From Flavobacteriales bacterium (GTDB lineage: Bacteria; Bacteroidota; Bacteroidia; Flavobacteriales_F; PHOS-HE28), in the NCBI GenBank assembly GCA_044346705.1, contig JBIIYP010000001.1, positions 148,634 through 212,633 on the forward strand: 64,000 nt of DNA, written 5' to 3'. Under the pieces are notes generated by a model, which worked only from the letters and a program-made list of their open reading frames with translations, searched no databases and was not told the DNA's origin. A program made the translations under genes and the position numbers. This document shows positions 4,543 through 11,783 of the stretch, piece after piece (the stretch's first letter is position 1; each line of letters starts with the position of its first letter).

Positions 4543-4629
4543 GATCGTTGCTCACCCCTTCCGCTCCAGCAGCCGACCCAGCAGCACCACCGGCACCAAG
4601 CCACAGGCCACGAGCAGCACGGCAGGCGA
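4543..4629. repeat. att copy R1: duplicate of 3' end (incl. stop codon) of permease gene 10236-11783
   Basis: tcaccccttccgctccagcagccgacccagcagcaccaccggcaccaagccacaggccacgagcagcacgg matches 10240-10320 with few mismatches. Confidence 0.8.
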
Positions 4630-5412
4630 TCAGGTGAGCCAATGTTGGCGGATGATATCAGGGAAGTTGGTGACCCGCTCGGCCAACGCAGCGTTGAACA
4701 GGAAGGGGCGGACATCTTCGGCTTGTTCAGCCATGTTCAGGGTGGCACAATGGGCCAGGAGCTTCTCGGTGAGTTCGGGTAAGGTGTTCACGTGGATCCG
4801 CTCACGCAAGTAGTCCAGGTCCGGTGAGGCGTTGAGCCCGAGCAGGAAGACCACATCGAAGAAGTCCCTTCCCTTGTTCCGCGGCCGGCCCATGATGGCG
4901 AAGCACTTCTGTGCCAACAGCAGGTCGAGCGAACAACAGGGCAGGCTGAAGGAGACATCGAACTTGTCCAAGCGCCGGAGAACGGGCGTGTAGGTGTAGT
5001 GCTGTGGTTCGGTGTCGAATTGGATCAGGATGCGCTGCTCGGCATGCCCGCTAAGTCCTTGTTGGAACAAGAGGCCCGGGAAGCGCACCTTGCAGCGGAA
5101 CGCGGTGCGGCTGCGGACCTCCACTTCCACTTGGTAGCCTTCGCGTTCAAGTCCCCTTCCCACGAGTTCAGCGAGCTCCTGTAAGCGCTCCGCGTCGAGG
5201 CCGAGGTTGTCGAAGTCTAGGTCCTCGCTGAAGCGCTGGTTCCCATGGATCAAGCGCAGGCAGGTGCCCCCCAGAAAGACGAGCTGACGGGCGTGCGCTG
5301 TGCGGTAGATGAGCTGCAGGATCCGGTACTGCAGGTATTCGCGCAACAGGAACGACGAGCGGTCGTGCAACGCCGCCGGATAGCCTGCGCAGATCTCATC
5401 AAGCGTGATCAT
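4630..5412 (-). CDS. AbiEii/AbiGii-family nucleotidyltransferase toxin (DUF1814)
   Basis: MITLDEICAGYPAALHDRSSFLLREYLQYRILQLI...LVFLGGTCLRLIHGNQRFSEDLDFDNLG typical AbiEii N-terminus; start taken at MITLDEI (5412), overlaps upstream AbiEi stop. Confidence 0.75.
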   Translation of the reverse strand: MITLDEICAGYPAALHDRSSFLLREYLQYRILQLIYRTAHARQLVFLGGTCLRLIHGNQRFSEDLDFDNLGLDAERLQELAELVGRGLEREGYQVEVEVRSRTAFRCKVRFPGLLFQQGLSGHAEQRILIQFDTEPQHYTYTPVLRRLDKFDVSFSLPCCSLDLLLAQKCFAIMGRPRNKGRDFFDVVFLLGLNASPDLDYLRERIHVNTLPELTEKLLAHCATLNMAEQAEDVRPFLFNAALAERVTNFPDIIRQHWLT

Positions 5413-6052
5413 GGAGCCATTTCTTGAGCGAGTGATAGCGTGACCGCATCGCATCGGAACCGCCGATCCCGGCGAAGTCGTCCATGCGCGCGGCATCGAT
5501 CCGGGCCACGATCTCCGTAGCGTCCAAGCGCCATGCCTCGAAGTCGCTCGTGGTGGCCATTTCGGGGTGCAGGTAAAGGACGTCCAACAAGGCCTTTTCG
5601 GGGCTGGCCATCCGTACCCGAAGGCCCTGGTGCTCCAGGAAGCGGTACCCGAAGTGGAAGGCCGGCTTGATGTGGCGATAGGTGTATTGCGTGCCGTTGA
5701 ACGCGAACCGCTTGGTGTGGCCGGTGGTCACCGATTCAACATGGAACACGCCCTCCGGAATGAAGTTGTAATAGCCCAGCGCGGACCGCAGGCTGATATA
5801 GCTCGGTGCGTGGATGGAGTTGGCGATGGCCCATCGCTCGTGATCGTTCATCGGGCGGCTTGCCATCCGGTAGAAGCCGTTCCTTATTTTCCGGATGTAG
5901 CCCTTGGCTTGCCATTGGCTAAGGCGTTCCGGTCGCATACCCGGGAAGTGCAAGCTGACCTCCGCCACGGAAATGACAGGTGAGCTCGCGAAGACCTCCT
6001 CGAAGACCCGGAAGCTGTGCCGTTGCTGCCGTTCAGGTGAGATCGGACTCAT
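5399..6052 (-). CDS. AbiEi-family antitoxin/transcriptional regulator
   Basis: Precedes and overlaps AbiEii by 14 nt in operon; N-terminal MSPISPERQQRHSFRVFEEVFASSPVISVAEV...LSQWQAKGYIRKIRNGFYR resembles AbiEi_4 wHTH; start at internal ATG 6052. Confidence 0.6.
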   Translation of the reverse strand: MSPISPERQQRHSFRVFEEVFASSPVISVAEVSLHFPGMRPERLSQWQAKGYIRKIRNGFYRMASRPMNDHERWAIANSIHAPSYISLRSALGYYNFIPEGVFHVESVTTGHTKRFAFNGTQYTYRHIKPAFHFGYRFLEHQGLRVRMASPEKALLDVLYLHPEMATTSDFEAWRLDATEIVARIDAARMDDFAGIGGSDAMRSRYHSLKKWLHDHA

Positions 6053-6140
6053 GGCTGACCTTGGAGGTATGTGTTCAAAACTTGCTAAATATAGCAATAA
6101 ATGTACATGAAAGTGCAAGCTGAATTAGCCGTACCGATCT

Positions 6141-6252
6141 CGTTGCTCACCCCTCCCGCTCCAGCAGCCGGCCCAGCATTACCACCGGCACCAAGCCACA
6201 GGCCACGATCAACGAGGCGGACAGCGCGGCCTCGCTCCGTTGCTCGATGCGC
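6141..6252. repeat. att copy R2: duplicate of permease 3' end, fused on its right to an integrase fragment
   Basis: ctcacccctcccgctccagcagccggcccagcattaccaccggcaccaagccacaggccacgatcaacgaggcggacagcgcggcctcgctccgttgctcgatgcg matches permease 3' end up to about 110 bp. Confidence 0.8.
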
Positions 6253-10140: not shown

Positions 10141-10165
10141 GGCATCGGTGTTCCGATTGGCAAAA

Positions 10166-10208
10166 CTACTCAATGGGTTGAGTAAAATAACTCAATAAGA
10201 TGAGTAAA
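10166..10208. promoter_or_regulatory. Two adjacent palindromic sites TACTCA-N6-TGAGTA and ACTCA-N6-TGAGT (operator or arm-type recombinase/RDF binding candidates) between native att copy and ATPase gene
   Basis: tactcaatgggttgagta (10167-10184) and actcaataagatgagt (10192-10207), locally AT-rich, immediately upstream of ATPase start and 30 bp from permease stop. Confidence 0.35.
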
Positions 10209-10235
10209 TACCTGGTCGATCCCAACCGATAGGGT

Positions 10236-11783
10236 TCACCCCTTCCGCTCCAGCAGCCGATCCAATAACACCACCGGTACCAGCCCACAGGCCACGATCA
10301 GCAAGGCGGGCAGCGCGGCCTCGCTCCATTGCTCGATGCGGGCCATCTCGAAGACCTTGGTGCTGAGCGTGTCGGTATCGAAGGGCCGGAGAATGAGGGT
10401 GAGCGGGAGTTCCTTCACCACTTCCATGAGCACCAGCAGCGCGGCGGCGAGCAAGGAAGGCTTCAGCAGCGGCAGGTTAACACGGAGGAAGGTGCGCAGG
10501 GGGCTGGCGCCGAGCAGGCGTGCGGCCTCGTCCAAGCTGGCGGGTTGTTGGTCCAGGCCAGCGCGGAGGGGTTGTGTGGCGAGCGCCAGGAAGCGCACGG
10601 AGAAGGCGTAGATCATGAGCACGATGGTGCCGATCAGCACCACTCCCGTAGCATCCGTGAGCCACCCAGCGAGGCTCATGACCCCGATGGCGATCACCGC
10701 GCCGGGCACCACATAGCCGATCCCGGCCAGTTGCCCGAAGCGGCTGCGGCTCTTGCGCTGGCCGTAGCTGAGCACCAGCGCCAGCAGGAGCGTGAAGAGG
10801 GCGGCGAGCACGCCGATGAGGAGCGTGTTCCCCATGGCCGGCAGAAAGTTCGGTGCGGCCTGCATGGTGCGTTCGCGGAAAGCGTCGAAGGCCAGCGCGA
10901 CCACAGGAATCAGGAAGGCGGCGCCCAGTACCAGTGCGCAGAACAGGGAGGCCATCGCCGCCCTGAGACCGGTCAAGGGTACGGGGCGCAGGCGCTTCCC
11001 CGAAACGCTGCGCCGGGCACCGCGGTCCGAGAGGCGGCCGAGCAGCATGAGCATCAGCACCACCAGCAGCAGGATGCCCCCGATGCGCAAGGCACTGCCG
11101 CTATCGTACAGGCCGCCCCAGCTGCGGAAGATGCCGGCGGTGAGGGTGCGCACACCGTAGTGCCTCACCGCGCCGTAGTCGTTCAGCACTTCCATGGCCA
11201 CAAGCAGTCCACCGCCACCGATCGCCGGGAGCGCCAACGGGAAGGCCACGCGGAAGGCGCGGCGCAGCGCGCCACCCCCGAGCATGCGCGCGGCATCGAG
11301 CTGGTCGCTCATGCCCGCACTGAAGGCCGCCCGCGCAGGCAGGTAAACGTAGGGGAAGAGCACCAGCGCCAGCACGTAGGCCAGTCCCGAAGGGGTGAGC
11401 ATGTCGATGTGCATGCCCGTGCGCTCCGCGAACCAGATGCTGCACGCGCCGGTGGGGCCCCACAGGTCGGCGAAGGTGATGGCGCTGATGTAGGTGGGCA
11501 GGGCCAGGGGAAGCACCAAGGCCCAGCGGAAGAGACCACGTCCGGGAAAGTCGTTCGCGGCCACGAGCCACGCGGTGCCGACACCGAGGACGAGCGCGAG
11601 GAGCACGGTGCGGCTCACCAGCACGGCGGTCTCCCAGAGGTAGGTGGGGAGCAACGTGGTGCCCACGTAGGCCCACTCCGGCGCGGGCGTGTGCAGAGGA
11701 GCGGTGGCCACCACGAGCAGCGGTGCCAGCACCAACAGGGCCAAGGCACCGGTCAACCCGTGTTCACGCCAAGCTCGGGTCAT
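10236..11783 (-). CDS. Iron(III)/thiamine-type ABC transporter permease (FbpB-like, two fused TMDs)
   Basis: 515-aa polytopic membrane protein with duplicated binding-protein-dependent transport signature; downstream of substrate-binding protein gene; its 3' end is the att target. Confidence 0.8.
   Translation of the reverse strand: MTRAWREHGLTGALALLVLAPLLVVATAPLHTPAPEWAYVGTTLLPTYLWETAVLVSRTVLLALVLGVGTAWLVAANDFPGRGLFRWALVLPLALPTYISAITFADLWGPTGACSIWFAERTGMHIDMLTPSGLAYVLALVLFPYVYLPARAAFSAGMSDQLDAARMLGGGALRRAFRVAFPLALPAIGGGGLLVAMEVLNDYGAVRHYGVRTLTAGIFRSWGGLYDSGSALRIGGILLLVVLMLMLLGRLSDRGARRSVSGKRLRPVPLTGLRAAMASLFCALVLGAAFLIPVVALAFDAFRERTMQAAPNFLPAMGNTLLIGVLAALFTLLLALVLSYGQRKSRSRFGQLAGIGYVVPGAVIAIGVMSLAGWLTDATGVVLIGTIVLMIYAFSVRFLALATQPLRAGLDQQPASLDEAARLLGASPLRTFLRVNLPLLKPSLLAAALLVLMEVVKELPLTLILRPFDTDTLSTKVFEMARIEQWSEAALPALLIVACGLVPVVLLDRLLERKG

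Follow-up and report, generated by a model that had tools for sequence, protein, structure and literature searches.

The subject of this report is a genomic island beside an iron(III)-type ATP-binding cassette (ABC) permease gene in a Flavobacteriales bacterium (PHOS-HE28; assembly GCA_044346705.1, contig JBIIYP010000001.1, positions 148,634-212,633 of the forward strand). The window, by which we mean the whole stretch of 64,000 nucleotides (nt) that was analysed, holds this gene together with four extra copies of its last 62-153 nt, stop codon included, all in direct orientation. The copies were found by a repeat search and by blastn of the permease 3' end against the whole window (E values 3e-12 to 2e-44), in which there is no sixth copy; in this respect a preliminary description of the same DNA had been right. 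We number them from R1, which adjoins a tyrosine recombinase (integrase) gene, to R5, the functional end of the gene and the reference for the others. The island extends leftwards from position 10235 through the window start and for ~1 kb beyond.

Species-representative genomes were scanned with the permease protein, yielding six Flavobacteriales metagenome-assembled genomes (MAGs) with 78-89% amino acid (aa) identity, while further loci, and the leftward extension of the window, were obtained by searching metagenome assemblies with the window proteins. The species of the window is referred to as lineage A; lineage B comprises L139 and L132 (~88% nucleotide identity) and lineage C is L142. The same island order was found in 10 contigs from 10 different samples, all encoding an identical permease, and the repeat structure is therefore not an assembly artefact. 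A chimeric assembly at ~3300, joining a 33%-GC (guanine plus cytosine) genome to a 65%-GC genome, was considered and rejected: the low-GC stretch is only ~4 kb long, and high-GC host genes lie on both sides of it in six independent contigs.

The direct repeats, as five in-register copies, bound four different modules (Table 1), whose cargo had been correctly assigned in the preliminary description according to Pfam and PADLOC. The modules hold a DUF4143 ATPase, a PIN toxin-antitoxin pair, a DUF2141 protein with a membrane protein, and an AbiE pair that is typical by PADLOC; no replication or packaging gene (helicase, primase) was found in them. The PIN module lies on the strand opposite to the other cargo. 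The last codons of the membrane-protein gene run into the remnant of a second integrase gene, and this remnant joins the upstream edge of R2 through a CGC microhomology. No known RNA family or tRNA gene was detected, and there is no tRNA or tmRNA gene in the 64 kb. Leaders homologous to that of the DUF4143 module are present in lineages B and C. Because similar palindromes (9945-10013 and 11328-11374) stand on both sides of a 78%-identical DUF4143 gene in an unrelated context, L140, the sequences suggest that this gene travels with its own operator-like or end sequences.

Table 1. Features of the island and its flank, in order along the window (R1 to R5, copies of the permease 3' end; the arrow marks the point of exchange)
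Feature	Position	Strand	Support or remark
Cassette 4, start; 184-aa protein, runs off the window	1-199	-	
Cassette 3; 283-aa protein (397-1248) and attC-like site (198-386)	200-1285	-	
Cassette 2; 259-261-aa membrane protein (1421-2206) and attC-like site (1284-1407)	1286-2285	-	
Cassette 1; NADAR protein (2426-3190) and attC-like site (2284-2409)	2286-3240	-	
attI-like site, GACGCAATGCGCTAACCCGCAG↓TTA	3226-3262	-	inferred crossover between 3241 and 3240
Tyrosine recombinase, 391 aa, Xer/IntI-like	3333-4508	-	profile, alignment, structure model
Spacer between R1 and integrase gene	4509-4551	-	first 31 nt identical in lineage B
R1, displaced copy adjoining integrase	4552-4627	-	76 nt, 86.8% to R5, E 2e-21
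Module 2 cargo, AbiEii	4630-5412	-	Pfam; PADLOC 311 bits
Module 2 cargo, AbiEi	5399-6052	-	Pfam; PADLOC 183 bits
R2, displaced 3'-end copy	6147-6251	-	105 nt, 86.7% to R5, E 7e-32
Remnant of second integrase gene (aa 28-51), 70 nt	6240-6309	-	86% identical to 4357-4426
Module 3 cargo, 313-aa membrane protein, 43% GC	6286-7227	-	
Module 3 cargo, DUF2141 protein	7350-7790	-	PF09912
'el', conserved non-coding element, ~130 nt	7933-8069	-	
R3, shortest displaced copy	8070-8131	-	~62 nt, 3-nt deletion (one codon), 81.5% to R5, E 3e-12
Module 4 cargo, 56-aa putative antitoxin (8223-8393) and PIN toxin (8383-8757)	8223-8757	+	PF01850, gene calls
R4, displaced 3'-end copy	8796-8945	-	153-nt alignment, 84.3% to R5, E 2e-44
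Module 5 cargo, AAA_14/DUF4143 ATPase	8947-10140	-	Pfam; PADLOC defence candidate PDC-S01, 570 bits
DUF4143 module leader with TACTCA-N-TGAGTA palindromes	10141-10235	-	sequence
R5, functional permease 3' end, reference copy	10236-10388	-	
Iron(III)-type ABC permease gene, 515 aa, target gene	10236-11783	-	PF00528
Solute-binding protein gene, precedes permease gene	11889-12938		

All five copies are in register with the TCA stop triplet on the plus strand and, translated in this register, end in ...(D/G)RLLER(K/E)(G/R) followed by the stop, both reading frame and stop being kept in five out of five. Homology ends at the stop codon in every copy except R1 and R2, which share TCGTTGC over the 7 nt beyond it, an extra flank that had already been recognised; these two copies are 93% identical over 72 nt, the 7 nt included. 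The upstream edge is different for each copy, R4 beginning directly after the DUF4143 stop codon and R1 right after that of AbiEii. The copies had been described as diverging in a graded manner, with R4 as the most diverged and in effect a paralogous C-terminus, and none of this held. All four are ~82-87% identical to R5, the least similar is R3, and R4 is out of frame with the DUF4143 gene that it follows, with 9 of its 20 changed codons being non-synonymous.

The ratio of synonymous to non-synonymous codon changes relative to R5 is 11:9 for R4, 6:6 for R2 and 6:4 for R1, compared with 9:1, 7:3 and 10:3 for true permease orthologues. Because their non-synonymous share is higher than that of the orthologues, the displaced copies are decaying relics under relaxed constraint; the lineage C counterpart of R4 carries an internal deletion. 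R4 also shares character states with the orthologues of L001, L002, L003 and L006 that R5 lacks, therefore the copies are not recent duplicates of R5. Over the last 28 nt R3 is identical to R5 (28/28) and R1 nearly so (27/28), while upstream the identity is only ~65% and 78%, respectively (p = 2e-4 and 0.03). R2 and R4 have three and four mismatches to R5 in these 28 nt, and an inverted-repeat core was recognised in none of the copies. A terminal block of this kind, with a sharp drop in identity upstream, suggests a preferred point of exchange. Carriage of the repeat core by a phage or satellite was considered and discarded: the one exact match in IMG/VR has no other similarity to the window and is attributed to chance.

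In each of the six relative MAGs the permease 3' end is single-copy, and synteny with the window, which takes in the permease, the binding protein, miaA and further genes, breaks off precisely at the permease stop codon. In these genomes the 10 kb downstream of the permease contain none of the island genes. The site is empty in L002 and L003, where a DEAD-box helicase gene lies ~100 nt past the permease stop and is followed by an ABC ATPase gene; in L005 the permease stop and the ATPase gene overlap. A DEAD-box helicase gene also follows the island in the organism of the window, as seen in the metagenome contigs that extend the window to the left. L006 carries a 1.75-kb insert of a different kind after the permease, in which the element 'el' (8590-8720 and 9326-9415) directly follows the stop of the permease gene and recurs ahead of each of two small cargo genes. 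R3 keeps ~130 nt of downstream sequence that in L006 directly follows the permease stop, and so, with this flank, it would look like a displaced former gene end that has retained its old context. Rfam contains no match to the element itself, and its structure cannot be judged from as few as three sequences.

Differently filled sites were found in four lineages, A, B, C and L133. In lineage B the order is permease, R, DUF4143, R, integrase; the junction from DUF4143 to R is the left junction of R4, and that from R to the integrase is the right junction of R1. The two permease-end copies of lineage B (L139 6315-6466 vs 7753-7902) agree at 149 of 150 positions, against 84% identity for the corresponding pair of the window, which points to gene conversion or a recent re-insertion. 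Lineage C shows the order permease, R, DUF4143, R, PIN, after which its contig ends, and the left junction of R4 is the same in lineages B and C. A and B are the closest relatives of each other in five genes out of five, C being more distant, and because lineage C already has the PIN module, the state of lineage B is most simply interpreted as a deletion between two R copies. The DUF4143 genes of A and C are 90.6% identical, compared with 77-81% for the flanking core genes, and C and the empty-site genome L002 are equally close to A; modules or blocks of modules have therefore moved between lineages. L133 (3372-9100) is a distant relative (MiaA 56% aa identity) that has lost the binding-protein and permease genes and retains permease-end relics beside the recombinase, in the order R'', toxin/antitoxin remnant, R', integrase, with both permease-end copies degenerate. 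As a side observation, PAS/SpoIIE and AhpC genes lie between miaA and the transporter genes in lineage C (L142 3336-5139), where they are pseudogenised, and between miaA and the island in L133.

The preliminary description had proposed a tRNA-independent hotspot at the 3' end of a protein-coding gene, to be checked by looking for empty or variably filled sites in related genomes, and the comparison with L002 and L003 on the one hand, and with B, C and L133 on the other, bears this out. Within the species the picture is uniform. Nucleotide comparison with the window was carried out for six of the ten same-species contigs, as far as each contig reaches, and all six are 99.6-99.99% identical to it across the stack. 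The stack is old and fixed within the present species, a fossil. Four of these six contigs continue past position 3238, and all four diverge there.

The recombinase gene starts 43 nt after the R1 stop codon. Its product scores 232.8 with the XerA-type profile NF040815 (cut-off 220) and 216.5 with the integron-integrase profile TIGR02249 (cut-off 265), residues 209-246 of VchIntIA, which form the IntI-specific insertion, are passed over when the two proteins are aligned, and its AlphaFold (AF2) model (predicted local distance difference test, pLDDT, 80) has no extra helix at the position of the insertion. The recombinase therefore lacks the IntI-specific insertion, and by the defining test it is not an IntI. 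This insertion is the part of IntI that contacts the extrahelical bases of attC. The best structural matches of the model are VchIntIA and XerA. The model also contains a confidently folded extra N-terminal alpha/beta domain (aa 10-80) on a disordered linker, for which the fold search gave no answer, the catalytic domains having dominated the whole-model search.

Full-length homologues of the recombinase number in the thousands, and those with a name come from Flavobacteriales/Bacteroidetes MAGs. R and the recombinase are adjacent in three diverged lineages, A, B and L133, with R placed 43 nt upstream of the integrase gene in A and B and ~70 nt upstream in L133; the R-to-integrase junction of lineage B is identical to that of the window. 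The integrase is 75% identical to its L133 homologue, against 56% for MiaA, and is thus better conserved than the core genes. The family is very large in Flavobacteriales, and both the absence of the IntI insertion and the extra N-terminal domain are features of it as a whole (homologues P0001-P0120). It sits at lineage-specific loci (L048-L138), upstream of low-GC cassettes and always just downstream of a co-oriented host gene, which is a permease, a Zip transporter or an OmpA-like gene. In L032 (7480-8060), L033 and L035, from the same or a very close species, only the degenerate last 200 nt of the integrase precede the cassettes and the helicase, and this remnant continues into a region with an SSF transporter and a TonB receptor, which the 64-kb window does not contain. 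These loci represent a rearranged or deleted variant without the permease stack at that junction.

A 16-nt motif, GCAACGATCAnCCCTG, occurs at 4396-4411 (+), 4536-4551 (-) and 6279-6294 (+). The first two copies form an inverted repeat that brackets the integrase promoter, the start codon and the first 32 codons, one arm coinciding with codons 33-38, and the third copy lies within the integrase remnant next to R2. The inverted repeat is kept in lineage B and not in other clades, and it could be a regulatory or a recombination footprint. As an arm-type motif around the repeats it was rejected, having only three good copies, all of them tied to integrase sequences.

To the left of the recombinase the GC content drops from ~62% to ~33%, in a host genome of 65% GC. 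This stretch, window 1-3260, was overlooked in the preliminary description, and the limits given there (4543-10400) also leave out the intact integrase gene. The stretch consists of single co-oriented open reading frames, and after each of them comes an imperfect palindrome, 124-189 nt long, with ...GC(T/C)AAC-A at its start and AA(A/C)CGTT(A/G)(G/A)C at its end. A purpose-built scanner for attC-like sites, with a chance expectation of 0.4 per 64 kb, found three sites in the window, all of them here and on the minus strand; none lies elsewhere, including the interval between 3333 and 10235. When folded as single-stranded DNA and compared with shuffles, the sites of cassettes 1 and 2 gave z = -4.3 and -4.1, respectively, and 0 of 200 shuffles folded as well. 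The attI-like site lies ~90 nt after the integrase stop and is conserved in seven loci, as two sequence types that all end AG↓TT; it is kept after the integrase stop in L133, L128 and L130. The array continues to the left of the window (L032 7916-11810; L038 18451-19470), and beyond cassette 4 a last attC-like site is followed by the host DEAD-box helicase gene (L032, L037).

It is this array that varies today. Strains of the same species differ in the first cassette, which encodes the NADAR protein, a DUF4262 protein or a 220-aa protein, and their divergence begins exactly after CAG↓TT. Cassette 2 is absent from strains L033, L034 and L036, and its presence or absence is bounded by AAAACG↓TT ends. 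Strain differences within the island are confined to the cassette array, and their breakpoints fall at G↓TT. Across eleven homologue loci the scanner placed ~32 sites on the coding strand downstream of the recombinase gene, 3 upstream and 4 on the other strand, where shuffles gave 3 per strand; at least nine cassettes with near-identical sites are present at one homologue locus. Window 1-3260 has the architecture of an integron headed by a recombinase that is not an IntI. As to the earlier claim that only the outermost integrase had survived, a 70-nt remnant of a second copy does lie within the stack, but the survivor heads an attI/attC-type array and is not a generic islet integrase.

Taking these observations together, we put a probability of about 0.6 on accretion through R, that is, on serial single-crossover insertion at the permease 3' end, whatever the enzyme. 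The composite island, ~11 kb between the permease stop and the DEAD-box helicase, would have been built by two recombination processes. In the first, small modules, each bearing cargo plus a segment that copies the final 60-150 bp of the permease gene, would have been inserted one after another, each by a single crossover inside the homologous permease-end segment; we infer that they entered as circles. Every insertion would rebuild an intact permease frame and push the previous 3' end downstream to decay, from R4 to R1. Because the same repeats would also mediate the loss of blocks of modules, sister lineages would come to differ in entire modules, the breakpoints lying within R. At least one of the units that came in would have carried its own copy of the neighbouring recombinase gene, now reduced to the remnant beside R2. 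The cassette array would be the product of the second process, with exchange at G↓TT. The pattern of accretion is the most likely reading of four features of the sequence: the different complete modules, the gene-end copy directly after each of them, whose length differs from module to module, the rebuilt gene and the old flanks of the displaced copies.

As to the catalyst within this accretion, a recombinase of the neighbouring family acting in trans on two R copies is a tentative candidate, to which we give slightly less than an even chance. A site-specific enzyme of this family is favoured by the adjacency of R and the recombinase gene in three diverged lineages and the better conservation of the recombinase, by the second integrase remnant fused to R2 and by the step in identity ~28 nt before the stop in R3 and R1, and the N-terminal domain, of a kind by which element integrases are recognised, counts on the same side. 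Several results weigh against accretion or against such an enzyme. No polymorphism of the stack was found in 10 assemblies of the species, nor any sign of present-day excision. The gene trees around the locus are discordant and do not settle in which order modules were gained and lost. At the far end of the island, alignments of R to the interval between the last attC-like site and the helicase are no better than those of shuffles, and with no distal repeat copy, entry of the recombinase platform by the same route cannot be shown. The conserved terminal block is lacking in R2 and R4, and there is no attI/attC-like GTT box in the repeats. R as a folded attC-like site was tried and rejected, since its copies fold no better than shuffles (z -1.9 to +1.7). 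No 8-mer is common to three or more of the repeat flanks, as would be expected of an arm-type motif, and no duplicated 3' ends were found upstream of the recombinase clades linked to Zip and OmpA-like genes.

Several of these same results would be accommodated if homology alone had been at work, the permease-end segments serving as portable homology for RecA-dependent crossover of circular or circularised DNA and for RecA-dependent loss of blocks. R has no recognisable core, arm sites or folded structure, the upstream boundaries of its copies vary (62-153 nt), the near-identity of the two lineage B copies (149/150) is what gene conversion would give, and the attI/attC-like sites of the recombinase are quite different in kind from R. 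However, RecA works poorly on segments of 60-150 bp that are only 80-93% identical, and homology alone would leave aside the last 28 nt, in which R3 matches R5 fully and R1 all but fully while identity falls off sharply upstream, as well as the linkage of recombinase and R in three diverged lineages and the second integrase remnant inside the stack. We regard this explanation, the main rival, as unlikely, though one to be taken seriously. Local duplication of the permease 3' end, with unrelated DNA landing between the copies at a later time, would account for their common orientation and register, but each interval is a complete and different gene module, cargo-R junctions with R directly after the cargo stop codon are conserved across lineages, related lineages differ by whole units of R plus module, and R4 has the orthologue states (L001, L002, L003, L006) that are missing from R5; we give this duplication hardly any credence.

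A further question is whether the recombinase beside the stack has worked on both of its flanks. In one form of this idea its N-terminal domain would be used on R, and new islets would enter beside the recombinase gene. The short distance between R and the integrase gene (43 nt in A and B, ~70 nt in L133) fits such a platform, as does the fact that what sets B apart from A is precisely the stretch from the R on the DUF4143 side to the R on the integrase side; no other two copies are as similar as R1 and R2 (93%), which lie closest to the integrase and have 7 nt in common past the stop; the stop codons of the cargo genes adjoin R in the way that cassette open reading frames adjoin attC; and the N-terminal domain with its disordered linker resembles the arm-binding domains of complex tyrosine recombinases (PMC8138268). 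Against this, the PIN module is already present in lineage C, which is more distant than B, making B more simply a deletion, the shared GCAACGA flank is missing from R3, R4 and R5, arm-type repeats were not found, and other clades of the enzyme have no upstream arrays. We judge this form to be quite improbable. One recombinase serving both sides, with attC cassettes downstream and a duplex permease-end site with defence islets upstream, is a reading we also hold to be improbable, if less so, and it would apply to the permease-linked clade; it includes the proposal that a large Flavobacteriales family of Xer-like enzymes runs genuine integron-type arrays without the insertion, regarded as essential to integron function, and with an extra N-terminal domain in its place.

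Accretion at the permease 3' end has its nearest counterpart in the accretion seen with ICEs (integrative and conjugative elements), IMEs (integrative and mobilizable elements) and CIMEs (cis-mobilizable elements), for example the ICESt1/CIME elements in the fda 3' end of Streptococcus thermophilus (PMC5704250). Both form head-to-tail stacks at the 3' end of a protein-coding gene, most units have lost their integrase, blocks are excised or deleted between repeats, and empty sites exist in related genomes. The units described here, however, consist of one or two genes (0.7-1.9 kb) without transfer or mobilisation genes, and their repeats, which are long (62-153 nt) and diverged (80-93%), have no identical core that can be demonstrated in all copies. 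A single recombinase is intact; it is Xer/IntI-like and stands at the head of an attC-type array, and there is no att copy at the distal end.

The islands at ssrA in Dehalococcoides (PMC3146451) and the tycheposon stacks of Prochlorococcus (bioRxiv 10.1101/2020.12.28.424599) likewise result from repeated integration at the same site, which pushes older elements inward, and have in common with the present stack partial target 3' ends, fragmented integrases and adaptive or defensive cargo. Those systems differ in targeting tmRNA or tRNA genes, where the target here is a protein-coding gene, and their activity has been shown experimentally, while the present case is known from sequence alone. Tycheposons also carry characteristic recombinase clades and often replication modules (helicase, primase), none of which is found here. 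The likeness to tycheposon arrays put forward in the preliminary description is therefore sound as far as the architecture goes and no further: the stack is old, fixed and decaying, without a tRNA target or a replication module, and it departs from tycheposons on every defining feature.

The array in window 1-3260 resembles sedentary chromosomal integrons, and among them the group termed 'inverted integrase', whose cassettes have the orientation of intI (PMC4889954, PMC8618304). The likeness extends to a simple site adjoining the recombinase gene, promoter-less single-gene cassettes in one orientation, cassette-end palindromes bounded by ...YAAC and GTTRR... with exchange at G↓TT, strain-specific content, sites that are homogeneous within a lineage, and defence-related cargo. 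The array differs from integrons in its recombinase, which is without the IntI insertion and has an extra N-terminal domain of ~80 aa with a linker, and in its sites, which have spacers of 1 nt and 4-5 nt between the R and L boxes and a total length of 124-189 nt. Small modules without a recombinase of their own are also known as pdif modules and other Xer-dependent elements, which often carry toxin-antitoxin or resistance genes and are bounded by Xer-type sites; the pdif sites are 28-bp dif-like sites in alternating orientation on plasmids. The repeats of the permease stack, unlike these, are direct, long and derived from coding sequence, and no dif-like site was identified.

Complete integrons have been reported as nearly absent from Bacteroidetes, in searches that use the IntI domain for discrimination (PMC9024848, PMC4889954), and IntegronFinder 2.0 recorded one complete integron in this phylum (PMC9024848). 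According to Smyshlyaev et al., an integron-like subgroup that they define has the insertion "not fully conserved" (PMC8138268). In the literature we found no description of an integron-like system with an insertion-less integrase in Flavobacteria/Bacteroidota, which is not proof of absence.

The stack represents a clear case of accretion at a gene end in an uncultured freshwater lineage of Flavobacteriales, an event of a type already known, and shows that the end of a protein-coding gene can take up very small defence or toxin-antitoxin modules that have no recombinase. What was not expected is the strain-variable integron-like cassette system beside it, whose recombinase is without the IntI-specific insertion. 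By the accepted definition, an enzyme is an integron integrase only if it has a specific inserted domain, and the array here is headed by an enzyme without that domain, which in many genomes keeps a constant place relative to the attI-like site and the attC-like cassettes. If this enzyme is the catalyst, gene capture of the integron type would be more widespread and mechanistically more flexible than has been thought, and some orphan attC clusters may be complete systems.

At the opposite end of the locus, a 1238-aa open frame (10329-14045, plus strand) runs antisense to the permease, binding-protein and miaA genes; it is an artefact of high GC content and not a gene.

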